Positions 3,448-9,871 of a stretch of 25,153 bases of DNA are shown piece by piece (position 1 is the first letter of the stretch; each line of letters begins with the position of its first letter). Where the stretch lies: UHGV virus genome UHGV-0073209; one strand, written 5' to 3'. Origin of the DNA: a virus. Below the pieces are notes generated by a model. It did not search any database. It saw only the letters and a program-made list of their open reading frames with translations, and was not told the origin of the DNA. The position numbers and the translations under genes were made by a program.

Positions 3448-3864
3448 ATGAAAAGAGAATACGCAGACAAAATTAACTCACTACTGCAATGCTTCCATTT
3501 CAATAAAGAGTTTCTGGAATGGAACCACGATTATTCACTTCAACTGTTGCGTCACGGCGCTTCCCACCTTTATCACTTCGCCATGCTCCAGGGAGAGACA
3601 GACAAAGCCACTTTGGAGGAACTCCGCAGCATTATTACCACCCTCACCAATGGCGAGATCCCTGAGCCATACGATTTGCTCTCACTGGAAGCCGAACAGC
3701 CAGAGCCGATTGACCCAAAAGGAAGGACTATGATGTTTGCTAATCCGCTGGCGGTATCAGTGGAACTTACGCCGGAGATGGTACAACAGCTGAAAGAGAC
3801 AATGGCGAAAATGGCGAATATCCCCCACAGAATGAGAAAGCCAACTCTCTATCCTCAGGGATAG
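3448..3864 (+). CDS. Hypothetical early protein (138 aa)
   Basis: ORF with GAGG Shine-Dalgarno upstream of ATG. Confidence 0.65.
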   Translation: MKREYADKINSLLQCFHFNKEFLEWNHDYSLQLLRHGASHLYHFAMLQGETDKATLEELRSIITTLTNGEIPEPYDLLSLEAEQPEPIDPKGRTMMFANPLAVSVELTPEMVQQLKETMAKMANIPHRMRKPTLYPQG

Positions 3865-3908
3865 GGGGCGAGCCATGTTCAACAAAAAGAAAGCCGGAGA
3901 TAATCCAA

Positions 3909-4181
3909 ATGACTACCACCGCTGATTTACTGGCTTTGCGCCAGAAATTGAGATCAGAAAATAATTCTGCTACAGGGACGAGGACTGGTTTCAGTGCCGA
4001 TCATATTTACAGCCGATCAGGTGCCGCTATTTATCCGGCAATATTAAGTGATATTAACGATAACGGGTTTGAGGTGAGATGTATTAGAACGGGTGCTGTA
4101 TTTACCATTAAACCAAACGGATCCATATGTCACGGACTTATTAAGTCCTTAGAGCGCGAATGGTTCGGCACTAGCAGTTAA
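3909..4181 (+). CDS. Hypothetical early protein (90 aa)
   Basis: ORF with GGAG Shine-Dalgarno upstream of ATG. Confidence 0.55.
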   Translation: MTTTADLLALRQKLRSENNSATGTRTGFSADHIYSRSGAAIYPAILSDINDNGFEVRCIRTGAVFTIKPNGSICHGLIKSLEREWFGTSS

Positions 4182-4254
4182 TTAAATTAGTTCGTTGATT
4201 TATTAACGGCATTCATTTTGCCGGGGATTCGCTTTGCCTTTTTCAGGAGGTCGC

Positions 4255-4479
4255 ATGTCGATCAAGTCAATAAAACTGGATGGCGGAATTAGCGATCCAG
4301 AGTTTGTGGAAATAAGCGCCAACGCACGGAAACACGAGCGCGCTCACGTCCTTGGCATGCTCCGTGATTTTGTCGGTCAGCTGAAAAAGGAAAGCGCCAC
4401 CCCGGAAGAGATTTATTCATCAATCGAACAGTGGGCCAACGCCCGCGAATTAACCATCACTGAGGAAAGCAAACAATGA
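4255..4479 (+). CDS. Hypothetical early protein (74 aa)
   Basis: AGGAGG at 4245-4250, 4 nt before ATG 4255. The track ORF begins at an upstream TTG (4234). The stop overlaps the next start (ATGA). Confidence 0.6.
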   Translation: MSIKSIKLDGGISDPEFVEISANARKHERAHVLGMLRDFVGQLKKESATPEEIYSSIEQWANARELTITEESKQ

Positions 4480-5054
4480 ACCATTTAATGATTGATATTG
4501 AAACGCTCAGCACCCAGCCGAATGCGGTAATTTGCGCGATTGGCGCAGTCTTCTTCGAACCGTCAACCGGAAAAATCGGCCCTTCGTTCTATCAGACCAT
4601 TGATCCGCGTACCTCGCAGAATCGTGGCGCTCACATCTCCGCCGACACAGTGATGTGGTGGCTCCGGCAGGATAAAGAACCTATCAGCGAGCTGGTAGGC
4701 GCGAAGTCGCATGAAATTGAGGTGATGCTGGATTTTGCCAAATTTATTGAAGGCACATTCCCTGAAACCACGAAAAAGAATCTGAAGGTCTGGTGCAAGG
4801 GCGGTTCGTTTGATTTTCCGATCCTCAAATCTGCATTTGAGCGCTCATCGCTCGAAGGCGTGCCTATGCTTCCGTGGGGCTACTGGAATGAGTGCTGTTT
4901 CCGATCGCTGCTAACCGTGGCCGGTGTTATCGGTTACGCCCCCCACCCGCGACGCTCAGTCGCACACAACGCTTTAACCGACGCCATCTATCAGGCCGAG
5001 CAGGTTTGCGAGATCTGGCAGCGCCTGACTTCCCCGCACCTCGAATCATTGTGA
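4476..5054 (+). CDS. DEDDh 3'-5' exonuclease (DnaQ/epsilon-like)
   Basis: Exo I motif MIDIETLS near the N-terminus and Exo III-like HNALTDAIYQAEQV near the C-terminus. Confidence 0.85.
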   Translation: MNHLMIDIETLSTQPNAVICAIGAVFFEPSTGKIGPSFYQTIDPRTSQNRGAHISADTVMWWLRQDKEPISELVGAKSHEIEVMLDFAKFIEGTFPETTKKNLKVWCKGGSFDFPILKSAFERSSLEGVPMLPWGYWNECCFRSLLTVAGVIGYAPHPRRSVAHNALTDAIYQAEQVCEIWQRLTSPHLESL

Positions 5055-5058
5055 GGGC

Positions 5059-6021
5059 ATGACAATGATTAAATCACCCATCAAATGGGCGGGCGGTAAA
5101 ACCCGCGTCATGCCGCAGCTGCTGAAGCATCTGCCGAAAGCCGATTGCCTGATTGAGCCGTTCGTTGGCAGCGGTACCGTGTTTATGAACACGGAATACC
5201 GCCGCTACGTCCTCTGCGATAGCAACCGCGCGCTGATCAATTTCTTTCTTGTATTGAGGGATGATACAGAGCGCCTGATAGCGGTTGCCCGCAATATATT
5301 TCGGGACGGTAACAAAGCAGATAAATATTACTCCGAGCGCGAAAAATTCAATTACATGTCATGGTATGAATCAGAAAAGGATTGCCGATCGACATTATGG
5401 GCGGCGTCCTTTTTGTACCTGAATCGCCACTGCTTCAACGGTCTTTATCGTACAAATCTGGACGGCGGTTTTAATGTGTCATTTGGCCGATATAAACAGC
5501 CATATTTCCCCGAAGCCGAAATGCGCTTATTCGCCGAAAAAGCGCGGGATACCAACGCGCTATTTCTTTGCAATGATTTTCGCACTTCTATTCCGTACAT
5601 CGCGAAGAATCGCCCGGACTCAGTAATTTACTGCGACCCCCCCTATATCCCGGCAAGCAAATCCGCCAATTTCACCGCATACGGCAAGCCGTTTACCCTG
5701 GACGATCATCGTGCTCTGGCTGCAACCCTGCTCGATGCTCATCGCCAGCACGGCACCCGCGCGGTGATATCCAACAGCGATACCCCGGAAACCCGCGAGA
5801 TTTATTCCGCTTTCAACCTCCACGCCTTCAGCGTTCGCCGTTCCGTTAGCGCCAAAAGCCGCGACATGGCCGGTGAAGTGATCGGCGTGATTCCTGATTC
5901 AGTCGACTGCTATACGCGTAGTTGCGCTAGCTGCGAAGACGTCGAGGAATGCTTAGCGCCGACAGAGATTTGGATCGGGTTTGATATGGCCGCCGGATTT
6001 GATAACGGGGAGCCTTTCTGA
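5059..6021 (+). CDS. dam: DNA adenine (N6) methyltransferase, Dam family, with a Cys-rich C-terminal extension
   Basis: IKWAGGK, EPFVGSGTVF, LYLNRHCFNGLYRTN and CDPPY align along the length with E. coli Dam. The start may be ATG 5065, which has GAGGG 7 nt upstream, rather than 5059. Confidence 0.92.
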   Translation: MTMIKSPIKWAGGKTRVMPQLLKHLPKADCLIEPFVGSGTVFMNTEYRRYVLCDSNRALINFFLVLRDDTERLIAVARNIFRDGNKADKYYSEREKFNYMSWYESEKDCRSTLWAASFLYLNRHCFNGLYRTNLDGGFNVSFGRYKQPYFPEAEMRLFAEKARDTNALFLCNDFRTSIPYIAKNRPDSVIYCDPPYIPASKSANFTAYGKPFTLDDHRALAATLLDAHRQHGTRAVISNSDTPETREIYSAFNLHAFSVRRSVSAKSRDMAGEVIGVIPDSVDCYTRSCASCEDVEECLAPTEIWIGFDMAAGFDNGEPF

Positions 6022-6194
6022 TGAACACGCTTGATGCCGTTGTGACGCGAATTCTGGACGTTCGCCCATATCGCCATTTCTGGGTCGTCGAGGTGGAGGT
6101 GCTGTGCTACGGCGATTACAGCAACACGATCATCATCCGCGATAGTGAAAAAGAAGCCCGCCAGGTTAAACCCGGCGACACGGTAACGATCTGA
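6021..6194 (+). CDS. Small hypothetical protein (57 aa), translationally coupled to dam
   Basis: ATG 6021 overlaps the dam stop (ATGA). Below the track length cutoff; found by manual translation (MNTLDAVVTRILDVRPYRHFWVVEVEVLCYGDYSNTIIIRDSEKEARQVKPGDTVTI). Confidence 0.4.
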   Translation: MNTLDAVVTRILDVRPYRHFWVVEVEVLCYGDYSNTIIIRDSEKEARQVKPGDTVTI

Positions 6195-6204
6195 GGTACC
6201 GCAA

Positions 6205-6360
6205 ATGAACGAAGAAACCAATTACCGCCGCTTCTGGCGCAATACCGTGATCTGCTGCGCGCTCTGCTCACTGCTGTTTTGGCTCCCGATGGGCTGTCTC
6301 GCCTTTCGTGTTTTCTCTGTGGTGTGGGAGGCGCTGTGGTTGCTTATTACAACGAAATAG
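6205..6360 (+). CDS. Possible small hydrophobic protein (51 aa)
   Basis: ATG 6205 with GAGGT 7 nt upstream; translation MNEETNYRRFWRNTVICCALCSLLFWLPMGCLAFRVFSVVWEALWLLITTK. Overlaps the methylase start region, so speculative. Confidence 0.25.
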   Translation: MNEETNYRRFWRNTVICCALCSLLFWLPMGCLAFRVFSVVWEALWLLITTK

Positions 6361-7391
6361 ACCCTCACGCAGCACAGCACCTGCGCAACCTTATCGACGC
6401 CGGCCATATTGCGCCGGGCGTCGTTGACACCCGTTCAATTGAGGATGTAACCCCCAATGACCTTATCGGATTCAATCAGTGCCATTTCTTCGCCGGGATC
6501 GGCGGATGGTCGCTTGCCTTACGCCGCGCAGGATGGCCAGACAGTCGCCCGGCATGGACAGCATCATGCCCATGCCAGCCTTTCAGCGCGGCAGGCAAAG
6601 GACTTGGGTTTGCTGACGAGCGGCACTTATGGCCCTCCGCACATTGGCTTGTCGGCCAGCGCCGCCCTGTCGTGGTTTTTGGCGAGCAATCTGGCAGCGC
6701 TGACGCAGCGGACTGGATCGACCTTGTACAAGCTGACGTGGAAGCCCTGGGCTATGCCTTCGGGGCGGTTGCGTTTCCGTCTGCGAGCGTCGGCGCGCCG
6801 CACCAGAGAGACCGCGCTTATTGGGTGGCCGACGCCGGCCGCGAACGAGTTCGAACCGAAGGACTTGCAAAGGCTCTTGGAGAGAAGGGAGAAATTCGCG
6901 GCCAAGCATGGAAACAACGGGTTTGGCCTGACACTAGGGCAGGCGGTGCATCTGTTTGCGGGCTGGCCGACACCGACGGCAACGGACGGGAAAGGCGGTT
7001 ATCAGGGTGGACGAATCCGCAATGGGAAGCTATCGACGGACAGGCTAGATGTGGCTGCGCAGCTTGCGGGCTGGCCGACGCCGACCACGAGCAACGACCG
7101 CTCGCCATGTCCGCAAGAGGCTATGCGGACGTATCGCGACAATGGAACAAAGATTCAGAAGCGGCTTCAGGATGTAGCTGCGTTATGCGGCCCGGCCCGG
7201 TTAACGGCTTCTGGAGAGATGCTGATTGGCTCCACGGCCGGGATGGATGGTGGAGGCCAGTTAGACCCGGATCATTCCCGCTGGCTGATGGGATTCCCGC
7301 CAGAGTGGGAAGAGTGCGCGCCTACGGAAACGCTATCAACATTGAAGCGGCGGCAGCGTTCATAAAAGCGTATATGGCGGCGGAACAATGA
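6336..7391 (+). CDS. C5-cytosine DNA methyltransferase (phage Dcm-like); conserved motifs split across two reading frames
   Basis: In the annotated frame: YYNEIDPHAAQHLRNLI, FFAGIGG (motif I), PCQPFS (motif IV), VVVFGEQ (motif VI-like), GAPHQRDRAYWVA (motif VIII), AYGNAINIEAAAAFIKAY (motif X-like). Start taken as GTG 6336, 5 nt after GGGAGG; the track ORF starts at TTG 6279. The overlapping ORF 6457-7365 carries three GWPTP motifs and RWLMGFPPEW. Confidence 0.7.
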   Translation: MVAYYNEIDPHAAQHLRNLIDAGHIAPGVVDTRSIEDVTPNDLIGFNQCHFFAGIGGWSLALRRAGWPDSRPAWTASCPCQPFSAAGKGLGFADERHLWPSAHWLVGQRRPVVVFGEQSGSADAADWIDLVQADVEALGYAFGAVAFPSASVGAPHQRDRAYWVADAGRERVRTEGLAKALGEKGEIRGQAWKQRVWPDTRAGGASVCGLADTDGNGRERRLSGWTNPQWEAIDGQARCGCAACGLADADHEQRPLAMSARGYADVSRQWNKDSEAASGCSCVMRPGPVNGFWRDADWLHGRDGWWRPVRPGSFPLADGIPARVGRVRAYGNAINIEAAAAFIKAYMAAEQ

Positions 7392-9871
7392 CCGCCGCAT
7401 CAACTGCACCTCACATCGCGCAGCCAGCTCGCGCTGACGCCACCCGGTATGATTACGAGTGGCAGAAGCCGAGACCTGCCATTTATGTTGATAAGACTCC
7501 TGCTGTTGATCTGGTTGAACTTGGTCAAGAGAAGGAGTTTTTGGCGTGGGTAAAAGTCACCCTTGCGCCGCTACCTCGCTTTATTCGCCTGCGTCTGGCT
7601 TCCCGCGTCGACAGCATTCACACCATGAAGGGCAGACACATCGCCCGCCTGGCGCTGCGCGATATCATCCGCAGGGATCTGCCGCCTATCAATATGGTTA
7701 ATGAGCAATATGCTATTGCGATGACCGATGAGGCTAAATCTCAGGCCGATACGGCATTTAAGGGGTTAAACCCGCTTTATCACACGTTTAACACCCTGCA
7801 TGGGCTGGTTGAGCGCTTTAATCGCCTGCCGGATTTCACGCCGGAAGATGTCGAGCTGCTGGCGCAGGATATCGCCATCTATATGCGGTCTGTGCTGAGT
7901 GAAGTTCACGAAACTATAGAGACGCAGAGTGATCGCAAATATGCCGGGTACCTTTACACCGAAGCGGCCATCCTCGCGCGGCTTTTCTTCCTGACGCCAC
8001 CGAGCTGGGGAAAGTATTGTCGCGGCGCGTTGTTTATTGACGAAGCTACTACCGGCATCAGCAAGATGCTGGATGATCGCTACTGGCACCGCAACCTGAA
8101 AAAGTACGCCACGCGCTGGCGCGAGCATCTGCACATTGCTTTTGGCGATGTGAAACGGGGTGCTGCACCGTATTGCAGCAAGCACCACGTTGACGAGTGG
8201 GACGCCAGGCGCAAGCGCAGCCGCGCGATCATGGCCCGCCTTGAACTGGAAGACCAGGATACCAAAGAGCGCATTTCACTTATCGAGCAGATCGATAAGA
8301 GCATATCTAACCCGGCGTTGCGCCGCGTTGAACTTATGACCCGTATCGGCGGCTTTGAGAAAGTCGCCACCGAAAGCGGCTACGCGGGTCAGTTTTTTAC
8401 CCTGACAGCGCCATCCAAATACCACGCATATACCGTATTCGGTCATCGTAATGCCAAATGGAACGGCGCCAGCCCAAGATCCACGCAGCGCTACCTTAAT
8501 CGGGTATGGCAGAAAATCCGCGCAGAGCTGGCCCGCCGCGAAATCCCGGTTTTTGGTCTGCGCGTGGCCGAGTCTCACCACGACGGTACGCCGCACTGGC
8601 ATGGCCTGCTGTTCTCTTTGCCGGAACATTCCGCCGAGCTACTGGAAGTGATGGAAGACTACGCCACCCGCGAGGACGCGGAAGAGTTACAGGGTAAGCA
8701 TGGCAACCAGCCGCGCTTTGACATGAAGCCTATCGATCATGAAATCGGCAGCGCCACCGGCTACGTGGTGAAGTACATCAGTAAGAATATTGATGGCTAT
8801 GCGCTCGATGGTGAAACTGACGACGAGAGCGGCCGGCCACTCAAAGAAACATCTAAACATGCTACTGCCTGGGCTTCATGCTGGGGTATCCGTCAGTTTC
8901 AGTTTTTAGGCGGCGCGCCGGTGTCTGTCTGGCGCGAGTTGCGCCGGTTCCGCAATCAGGAGCAGGCCGACAAGATAAACCCACTGTTTGCCGAGCTACA
9001 CCGCGCGGCCGATGCTGGCGACTGGCAGCAATACACTCAATTACAGGGGGGCGCACTGGTTGCCCGCCGCGATCTGCCGCTGCGTATCTGGTACCAGCAG
9101 AAAGACGAGCCGAATGATTACGGTGAATATCGCGACCTCATCAAAGGCCTGATGATGCCAGCCGTTCAGATCCCCCCCATTGAAACCCGCCTGCATTCCT
9201 ACTCAATCGTAAGGAAGAAACCGGAGGTTTTAGACGACTCCGGGCAGGCAGTTGACTTTGATTTTGACCTTCCGGGCGCGTCTGCGCCCTCTAGGACTCG
9301 TGTCAATAACTGTACCGAGGTTAAAAAACGAACAAATCAGCCCCCCGGATCACCGCCATTAATGACAGTGCCAGCTGAGCGGGAAGAGCCTGAACAGTTC
9401 GAGATCGGTCAGTTAACACGCGAACAGCGAAAACAGGCGTTTGAAAGCATCCATAACCACAAACCGCAGCGGCATAAATCCCCCGCCGATGAGTTTGAGG
9501 CGCTGGCGTACAGCATTACCGTCGGCGACTGTACAGAATTTGACACCCGCAGGGCAGAAAGTTATCTCAAGGCCGCCCAGGAGATTAGGCGGAGAGAACA
9601 GGTTTTATCACCGGAAATCGCCGGACTGGCGGGCTTAGTTCAGTCATGGGCGAAAGTGAAGAAGGTGCTGATCAGTAAACCGCAGGCTATACAGCTGGCG
9701 CGCGGTAATGAAGTGACGGTGCTGGATACGGTATATCGAGCGCATCCGGTTACGGGTGAGTTGATCATTGCAGGCGTTGATAAACCGTGGCGCAAAACTC
9801 TTGCAGATCATAAGGCCGGCGAGCTAGCGGCTCGCTGGAAGAAGGCAGCTAAACGGAAAAATGAGAGGTAA
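7388..9871 (+). CDS. A: Rolling-circle replication initiator (P2 gpA-like, HUH endonuclease)
   Basis: 827 aa. HUH-type motif TPHWHGLLF and paired catalytic tyrosines in GYVVKYISKN. The start overlaps the methylase stop (ATGA). Confidence 0.9.
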   Translation: MTAASTAPHIAQPARADATRYDYEWQKPRPAIYVDKTPAVDLVELGQEKEFLAWVKVTLAPLPRFIRLRLASRVDSIHTMKGRHIARLALRDIIRRDLPPINMVNEQYAIAMTDEAKSQADTAFKGLNPLYHTFNTLHGLVERFNRLPDFTPEDVELLAQDIAIYMRSVLSEVHETIETQSDRKYAGYLYTEAAILARLFFLTPPSWGKYCRGALFIDEATTGISKMLDDRYWHRNLKKYATRWREHLHIAFGDVKRGAAPYCSKHHVDEWDARRKRSRAIMARLELEDQDTKERISLIEQIDKSISNPALRRVELMTRIGGFEKVATESGYAGQFFTLTAPSKYHAYTVFGHRNAKWNGASPRSTQRYLNRVWQKIRAELARREIPVFGLRVAESHHDGTPHWHGLLFSLPEHSAELLEVMEDYATREDAEELQGKHGNQPRFDMKPIDHEIGSATGYVVKYISKNIDGYALDGETDDESGRPLKETSKHATAWASCWGIRQFQFLGGAPVSVWRELRRFRNQEQADKINPLFAELHRAADAGDWQQYTQLQGGALVARRDLPLRIWYQQKDEPNDYGEYRDLIKGLMMPAVQIPPIETRLHSYSIVRKKPEVLDDSGQAVDFDFDLPGASAPSRTRVNNCTEVKKRTNQPPGSPPLMTVPAEREEPEQFEIGQLTREQRKQAFESIHNHKPQRHKSPADEFEALAYSITVGDCTEFDTRRAESYLKAAQEIRRREQVLSPEIAGLAGLVQSWAKVKKVLISKPQAIQLARGNEVTVLDTVYRAHPVTGELIIAGVDKPWRKTLADHKAGELAARWKKAAKRKNER

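Follow-up and report, generated by a model that had tools for sequence, protein, structure and literature searches.

What is the role of the cysteine-rich segment that closes the Dam methyltransferase of a P2-like prophage? The question arose in the UHGV virus genome UHGV-0073209, of which we analysed a stretch of 25,153 nucleotides (the window). It spans the region for early functions and morphogenesis in a Klebsiella prophage of the P2-like type (Peduoviridae), and about 60% of it aligns to Klebsiella phage 3LV2017 (Reginaelenavirus) with 88% identity. Phage Dams are usually viewed as plain anti-restriction or epigenetic enzymes. The Dam of the window is an ordinary core followed by an accessory tail that we did not find described in the literature searched, and we consider it highly probable that this tail is real, selected, and modular. 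The gene and its parts are listed here; type A is one of several forms of the cysteine knuckle (described below), and SSB-Ct stands for the tip at the C-terminus of SSB, the protein that binds single-stranded DNA.

5059-6021, + strand: Dam gene, 320 amino acids (aa), D12-class N6-adenine DNA methyltransferase
5059-5889, + strand: catalytic and DNA-recognition core, aa 1-277, AlphaFold2 predicted local distance difference test (pLDDT) ~95
5890-6018, + strand: C-terminal tail, aa 278-320, IPDSVDCYTRSCASCEDVEECLAPTEIWIGFDMAAGFDNGEPF, with 10 acidic residues and 1 basic one among its 43
5908-5952, + strand: type-A Cys4 knuckle, C-x4-C-x2-C-x5-C (C284, C289, C292, C298)
5953-5994, + strand: linker LAPTEIWIGFDMAA, with a W-I-G-F-D motif
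5995-6018, + strand: tip GFDNGEPF-COOH, of the SSB-Ct type; F320 is TTC at 6016-6018, followed by TGA
6007-6012, + strand: GGGGAG, Shine-Dalgarno sequence of the next gene, within codons G317-E318
6019-6023, + strand: TGATG, the Dam stop overlapping the ATG of the next open reading frame (ORF)

The Dam core and its end

The ORF at 5059-6021 translates to a protein ending in ...GEVIGVIPDSVDCYTRSCASCEDVEECLAPTEIWIGFDMAAGFDNGEPF; codon 278 begins at 5890 and the TGA stop occupies 6019-6021. Because homologues start with MIKSPIKW, translation may in fact begin with the ATG at 5065. The D12 profile PF02086 covers aa 10-262 (E 4e-58, 197.4 bits for a cut-off of 22), and TIGR00571 ('dam') covers aa 5-269 (249.9 bits for a cut-off of 114.85). 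The score for the equivalog NF008152 is below its cut-off (260 vs 441), and the protein is therefore a member of the Dam family and not the chromosomal Dam equivalog. E. coli Dam (2g1p, 278 aa) aligns with aa 6-267 (E 8e-65), the last of these corresponding to its residue 255, and the AlphaFold2 model places the final core beta-strand at aa 270-277. The S-adenosylmethionine motif FxGxG (EPFVGSG, aa 33-39) and the catalytic DPPY (D193-P194-P195-Y196) are invariant, or nearly so, in the alignments. Identity to E. coli Dam is about 45% across the DNA-recognition region, from which we infer that the enzyme methylates GATC. The catalytic and GATC-recognition core is thus that of an ordinary Dam.

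Taken together, the domain limits, the 2g1p alignment, and the position of the last strand make residues 278-320 extra. A first-pass annotation made from the sequence had stated that Dam runs about 40 aa past its usual end, and the translation, the domain limits, and the alignment all agree: the tail extends ~42 aa past the last core strand and reaches ~30 aa beyond the end of E. coli Dam. The same annotation suggested that the extension could alter specificity. We found no support for this, because the core is ordinary and an acidic tail is unlikely to contact DNA.

The annotation of the related Dam of phage 3LV2017 (L001, NC_047817.1, CDS 3731-4870) places the RefSeq start ~170 nucleotides (nt) upstream, inside the exonuclease gene, and this start is probably mis-called.

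Distribution, selection, and anatomy of the tail

The 120 nearest clusters at 90% identity, some with more than 1000 member sequences, all consist of proteins of 303-344 aa, and in nearly all of them the GEVIGV strand is followed by a tail of 39-57 residues. Most relatives carry a knuckle that we call type B (CxxC-x8-CxxC; VCxxCG-x7/8-CPDCG), and the window has the rarer type A at the same position; the four Cys are kept in 96 of the 120 clusters. In a third lineage, type C, which includes the inducible phage 3LV2017, two Cys are replaced and a 1-nt deletion turns the terminal ...GEPF into ...GEPSDEHA, so that type C looks, from its sequence, like a decayed type A. Only about 5 of the 150 best representatives of clusters at 50% identity (drawn from 1.8 billion proteins) have a Cys-rich tail, and ~140 of 150 diverse Dam representatives end a few residues past the strand, like E. 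coli Dam. A scan of one genome per species revealed the tail in prophages of Klebsiella, Citrobacter, Yokenella, Salmonella, Enterobacter, and Hafnia; in the same scan, it was absent from the Dams of Yersinia, Serratia, and Gilliamella and from chromosomal Dams. Together with the cluster counts, this indicates that the extension is clade-specific and universal inside the clade. It is also present on Dams that share only 49% core identity with the Dam of the window (L008, L011, L014).

The tail evolves under constraint. Nei-Gojobori estimates of the ratio of nonsynonymous to synonymous substitution rates (dN/dS) are 0.11-0.40 for the tail (0.27-0.40 among type-A tails) vs 0.10-0.18 for the core. 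Between the loci L002 and L008, the dN of the tail (0.16) is lower than that of the core (0.40). The reading frame is unbroken in more than 100 homologous clusters. These ratios and this conservation exclude a frameshift, read-through, or neutral junk. A frameshift or a missed stop was also rejected directly, the frame being continuous and conserved. Close orthologues commonly have the extension, and AlphaFold2 gives it no confident structure, which goes halfway towards the refuting case named by the first-pass annotation; the extension is nonetheless selected, and it is not an artefact of the reading frame.

Three homologues deserve mention in their own right. The Dam at L013:3001-3960 (Klebsiella michiganensis DSM 25444) is frameshifted near codon 195, just past the DPP motif, and its downstream frame still codes for an intact type-A tail; it is therefore a recent pseudogene. 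The homologue P0097 has an unusual tail with 10 Cys (VCEGCGRYEGGHCAQCCPGIAACEEGWSFDCCGNCEACEGLDNGEPF), and the tail of P0062 ends in a different acidic tip, ...ESEENPIPL-COOH.

The first-pass annotation counted four Cys in 15 residues, and this is exact: C284, C289, C292, and C298 are encoded at 5908-5910, 5923-5925, 5932-5934, and 5950-5952. Given the Cys frequency of the core (2.2%), four Cys within some stretch of 15 residues are expected ~0.08 times per protein of this length, and the cluster alone is therefore only mildly unusual and proves little. It can be regarded as non-random because its spacing is conserved and the tail is under purifying selection: all type-A tails retain C-x4-C-x2-C-x5-C, even the divergent CHPRGCGSCPDAAEC and CYTRRCAACADVAEC, in which the intervening residues differ.

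The W-I-G-F-D motif of the linker recurs in other tail types (P0055, P0075, P0099). Some sister phages encode, between Dam and the next ORF (ORF57), a family of ORFs of 88-93 aa that the window lacks and that has no match in Pfam or PHROG:

L002:3393-3671: ORF of the 88-93-aa family
L085:2407-2688: ORF of the 88-93-aa family
L086:3693-3959: ORF of the 88-93-aa family

The N-terminus of this family (EPVWMAVDHAEESGD) resembles the tail segment EIWIGFDMAAGFDNGE of the window, a similarity that suggests a history of the tail in which modules were exchanged or fused.

AlphaFold2, run with an alignment of 150 sequences, gave a pLDDT of ~95 for the core and ~50 for the tail, with no secondary structure over aa 281-320; a run with a shallow alignment of 50 sequences (mean pLDDT 62) was uninformative even for the core. 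The structure prediction thus gave no confident fold to a tail that is selected nonetheless. Such low values would fit disorder, or a knot that depends on metal with a flexible peptide behind it, and are not positive evidence for either. No model or match among PDB sequences, PHROG, Pfam, and NCBIfam covers the tail, and an index of 5.8 billion proteins returned no candidate sharing enough words with it. In phages, tblastn matched only Dam tails of the 3LV2017 type, besides chance-level matches to tailspikes.

Other interpretations of the segment were discarded. A beta-clamp-binding motif (QL[SD]LF) was ruled out by inspection, the tail having neither Gln nor a Leu-x-Phe pattern. A regulatory DNA or RNA element beneath the tail was ruled out as well, since 5890-6021 contains no site resembling a promoter or terminator and the window has no match in Rfam. 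The opposite-strand ORF at 5910-6221 (103 aa) was treated as spurious; nothing supports it.

The tip, the knuckle, and their possible roles

The end of the tail resembles that of SSB. A terminal Phe is found in 84 of the 120 clusters. Of the 24 distinct tips, 14 have Phe at position -6, 21 have Asp or Glu at -5, 21 have Glu at -2, and 15 have Pro or Gly at -1 (Pro 9, Gly 6). The window tip GFDNGEPF-COOH agrees with the E. coli SSB-Ct, MDFDDDIPF-COOH, at F-6, D-5, P-1, and F0, and has both the final Phe (F320) and the Pro at the ssb113 position (P319). In SSB, the terminal Phe and its carboxylate occupy a hydrophobic pocket beside a basic residue, and the changes Pro-to-Ser (ssb113) and Phe-to-Cys disrupt partner binding (PMC3159472). 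At least 17 partners are recruited by the SSB tip, which a disordered linker precedes (PMC7145534).

Tips of this kind are not restricted to Dam. A scan of IMG/VR with the pattern FD[DN]G[EV]PF-stop returned 16 loci. In L090, the tip (FDDGVPF) follows a P/Q-rich linker on a single-strand-binding protein of the DUF669/PHROG_378 family, and the scan also retrieved it on two unrelated proteins of 198 and 274 aa. In several loci (L007, L087, L093, and others), it lies on a separate 66-aa protein encoded directly after a tail-less Dam; another polypeptide thus bears the tip at an unchanged place in the genome. Members of the ORF57 family in sister Klebsiella/Raoultella prophages have a form of 74-75 aa ending in DSDFADEDELPF-COOH or DDADELPF; the ORF57 of the window is a short form without the tip. 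Sister prophages also encode a 162-aa early protein with the C-terminus YDFDGGLPF. Since the tip occurs on several proteins, one of them an SSB, it is a portable motif of phage DNA-metabolism proteins.

Some details of these neighbours can be recorded here. In Enterobacter-type P2-like phages, the tail-less Dam ends in ...VLRTSRNRKEVA, and the 66-aa protein (L007:3843-4043; L087, L093, L096, L099, L101, L102) starts at an overlapping TGATG and ends in ...AFFGFDDGVPF-COOH. The tips of the long ORF57 forms are strikingly SSB-like, ...IPVVSLDSDFADEDELPF-COOH or ...MDDADELPF (L013:3956-4180; L086:3959-4171; P0271-P0309). The idea that ORF57 might be a cryptic SSB with an OB fold was abandoned, as searching the PDB with its profile yielded nothing significant (uS17, E ~0.4).

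The codons of the tip overlap signals for the next gene. The Dam stop overlaps the following ATG (as TGATG or TAATG) in every tail-bearing Dam locus, an arrangement indicating that Dam and the next ORF are translationally coupled, and the GAG at -2 always lies within GGAG or GAGG, 7-9 nt ahead of that ATG. This overlap accounts for the Glu at -2 and possibly for some of the rigidity of the tip. The codons of F0, P-1, D-5, and F-6 vary synonymously (TTC/TTT, GAT/GAC, CCT/CCA/CCG); thus, these residues are not explained by the Shine-Dalgarno sequence, and the constraint on them acts at the protein level. The tip is also present on genes without any stop/start overlap (L013b, L086b, L021).

The knuckle of the sister Dams has relatives elsewhere. 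The type-B knuckle is homologous to a module inside the RecE-family proteins of lambdoid phages, with 62-69% identity over 24-29 residues (tblastn E 5e-8 to 2e-4) and the shared consensus [RK]VCxxCGxxGGGxCPDCGxVMGxxTYxEMF. We located this module in three proteins:

L103:1327-3399: PhiR5_2 'exodeoxyribonuclease VIII', RecE-type module at aa 563-577
L104:1357-3837: 826-aa protein of phage Evi, module at aa 551-565
L105:687-3287: RecE of the E. coli K-12 Rac prophage, module at aa 517-531, lying just upstream of the catalytic domain

Pfam has no model for the module, DNA encoding the RecE version occurs in 4532 among 5426 complete genomes of E. coli, and the literature searched for a Zn site in RecE contained nothing relevant. 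In the Evi protein, the knuckle is followed by a linker that is very acidic and, at the C-terminus, by an Rv2179c-like exonuclease domain (aa 642-819), which is 37% identical (E 1e-38) to the exonuclease encoded at 4476-5054 in the window. A fusion of this Rosetta-stone type hints at a joint action of the exonuclease and the Dam tail. Because it is shared with RecE-family proteins, the type-B knuckle is, as far as sequence can tell, an autonomous and mobile mini-domain of phage DNA enzymes, set within acidic disordered sequence. Type-B tails themselves have ~5 acidic and 2 basic residues. Types A and B may be functionally equivalent, judging from their position alone. Among the hallmarks of zinc ribbons, type A shows four Cys at fixed spacing; it has a single CxxC, hence no paired CxxC(G), and no match in Pfam or the PDB. 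Its type-B relatives carry CxxCG...CPDCG and have weak PDB matches (E 0.06-1.4).

We lean, if only slightly, towards protein docking as the function of the tail. The occurrence of the knuckle in acidic disordered sequence, together with the acidity of the window tail, argues for this rather than for binding to nucleic acids. The fuller reading, that the tail is a metal-stabilised docking tether with an SSB-type tip, is one that we propose tentatively, and docking specifically through mimicry of the SSB tip we regard as possible rather than probable. Under this model, the four Cys just after the last core strand would chelate one ion, most likely Zn2+, and form a small rigid knot, from which a flexible and strongly acidic linker would lead to the tip. 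The tip, F-D-x-x-E-P-F-COOH, would be a short linear motif of the SSB-Ct class, and its free terminal Phe carboxylate would enter the type of pocket that normally takes the SSB tip; host proteins of the replisome or of repair have such pockets, and a phage protein might offer one as well. Docking could then place Dam at the sites of phage DNA synthesis, where GATC would be methylated as the DNA is made; alternatively, the Dam tail could compete with SSB for its partners. The first-pass annotation spoke of a possible metal-binding or protein-interaction appendage. Both roles gain from the fixed Cys spacing, the selection, the acidic and putatively flexible tail, and the SSB-type tip, and an effect on the localisation of Dam, which it also mentioned, is the outcome that we favour. 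Bound metal, the partner's identity, and the biological outcome are all inferred here.

Several observations weigh against this model. The type-A knuckle of the window had no homologue detectable by tblastn outside Dam tails, RecE included. A tip of the SSB class would carry a run of three or more acidic residues immediately ahead of Ile/Leu-Pro-Phe; the last eight residues of the window tip hold two, D315 and E318, vs four in E. coli SSB. Position -2 is Glu vs Ile in SSB, and many relatives have Gly and not Pro at -1. A mimic of the SSB tip binds the partners of SSB and not SSB itself, so any targeting to the fork would be indirect. Part of the conservation of the tip is at the nucleotide level, given the Shine-Dalgarno sequence and the stop/start overlap. 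About 30% of clusters, including the abundant type-C lineage of 3LV2017, lack the terminal Phe, and the function of the tail is therefore dispensable. Loss of the four Cys and loss of the Phe do go together (88 vs 8 with an intact knuckle, 3 vs 21 with a lost one), in a table that amounts to only about three independent lineages.

Could the knuckle be the sole functional element, as a structural Zn cap that steadies the C-terminal strand or a dimerisation or docking mini-domain, with a tip that is a by-product of translational coupling and resembles SSB by coincidence? The better conservation of the Cys than of the terminal Phe (96 vs 84 of the 120 clusters) speaks for it, as do the invariable placement of the GAG at -2 inside a Shine-Dalgarno-type motif, the locus L009, which retains this motif in its DNA and not the tip peptide, and the RecE-family proteins, where the type-B knuckle is internal with no C-terminal tip after it. 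Ribosome binding nevertheless leaves F0, Pro/Gly-1, D-5, and F-6 unexplained, all of which vary synonymously, and the tip is found both in genes without the overlap and on an SSB-family protein; we find this account rather unlikely. The opposite emphasis, on charge, leads to autoinhibition: the tail (net charge ~-9) would fold into the DNA-binding cleft of Dam as a DNA mimic and restrain methylation until displaced. The acidic C-terminal tails of T7 gp2.5, T4 gp32, and SSB fold onto their own DNA-binding surfaces, a precedent that suits a segment with 10 acidic residues, 1 basic residue, and predicted flexibility. Yet AlphaFold2 does not dock the tail on the core, type-B tails are far less acidic, and the four Cys are left without a role, so that we judge autoinhibition improbable.

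The Cys themselves might hold a [4Fe-4S] cluster instead of Zn and give Dam a redox-active or DNA-charge-sensing element. EndoIII and MutY bind such a cluster with C-x6-C-x2-C-x5-C, and the AddB, Cas4, and Dna2 nucleases share the C-x2-C-x5-C core; the window has C-x4-C-x2-C-x5-C, and the distant representative P0123 has C-x5-C-x2-C-x5-C. The agreement is nonetheless confined to C-x2-C-x5-C, the first interval being two residues shorter than in EndoIII and the glycosylase fold being absent. Most relatives have a classical Zn-type CxxC...CPxCG knuckle at the same position, and the segment is acidic, short, and devoid of a surrounding fold that could shield a cluster. This makes a cluster quite improbable in our view. 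The scenario to which we give least credit is that of an evolutionary leftover, a functionless read-through or fusion with bits of neighbouring small ORFs. It would fit the mosaic character of the tail, which differs between close relatives, the likeness of its WIGFD segment to the N-terminus of the separate ORF93 family that the window lacks, the persistence in more than 1000 sequences of type-C tails that have lost two Cys and the tip, and the low AlphaFold2 confidence. It is contradicted by the dN/dS of 0.11-0.40, by the invariant Cys spacing, and by the tail being more conserved than the core between distant Dams.

Gene neighbourhood, implications, and known systems

The genes around Dam in the window are the following.

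4476-5054, + strand: Rv2179c-like DEDDh 3'-5' exonuclease, directly upstream of Dam (PF16473, E 2e-51)
6021-6194, + strand: ORF57, 57 aa, PHROG_8110, function unknown, downstream of Dam
between ORF57 and the Dcm-like gene: ORF of 51 aa
~6279-7391, + strand: Dcm-like gene
7388-9871: gpA replication nickase

The Dcm-like gene (6279-7391, + strand) is matched by C5-methyltransferase models over aa 94-184 only, with 43.9 bits for PF00145 and 27 bits, under the cut-off, for TIGR00675; it may encode a divergent or partly degenerate C5-methyltransferase. A 302-aa ORF in another frame (6457-7365, + strand) spans nearly the entire gene and is probably a GC-rich artefact.

Thousands of prophage copies in Klebsiella, Citrobacter, Salmonella, and E. 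coli have this conserved and selected tail, which none of the domain databases searched picks up, and this suggests that phage Dams bearing it are targeted to a partner. The literature searched for SSB-tip mimicry by phage methyltransferases, and for the tail itself, contained nothing relevant, which is not proof of novelty. If the tip mimics the SSB C-terminus, it would offer a simple and testable case of a phage hijacking the host SSB interactome by a short linear motif, and would explain full methylation of phage DNA during rapid replication. The knuckle of the sister Dams is a module of the uncharacterised N-terminal region of RecE, and so gives a concrete handle on a recombineering workhorse. 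A broader proposal, which we consider doubtful, is that P2-like phages (and lambdoid phages via RecE) equip unrelated early DNA-metabolism proteins with portable docking modules into the host SSB network, namely the Cys4 mini-domain and the SSB-tip mimic, carried by Dam, the ORF57 family, the 66-aa protein, and RecE-family nucleases. If it were true, Dam would be the first case of a DNA methyltransferase recruited through mimicry of the SSB tip, and a function could be proposed for the N-terminal region of RecE, so far unexplained.

Comparison with known systems places the parts of this protein in different company. E. coli Dam and the D12-class enzymes share its catalytic and DNA-recognition core, with FxGxG and DPPY, but E. 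coli Dam stops ~11 residues past the last strand, whereas the Dam of the window adds its ~42-aa tail with the Cys4 knuckle and the acidic tip. Small zinc ribbons and rubredoxin knuckles (the VapC6 Zn ribbon, 2lcq; the CxxCxGxG of DnaJ) likewise gather four Cys in 15-16 residues; type-B tails carry their CxxCG...CPxCG signature, while type A lacks paired CxxC knuckles. With the RecE family, the type-B tails of sister Dams share a module that is followed in both by an acidic disordered stretch, although in RecE it is internal rather than C-terminal, in a region whose function is unknown. The SSB tail is, like that of the window, an acidic extreme C-terminus after a linker (putatively flexible in the window), with Phe-Asp at -6/-5 and Pro-Phe-COOH at the end; the window tip, in contrast, belongs to a methyltransferase and not to an OB fold, and a Cys4 knuckle precedes its linker. 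In phage T7, gp2.5 and gp4 dock on a common replisome partner by acidic, Phe-terminated C-terminal tails. There too, several proteins of one phage have an acidic tail ending in Phe, but the phage, the proteins, and the sequence differ from those described here.

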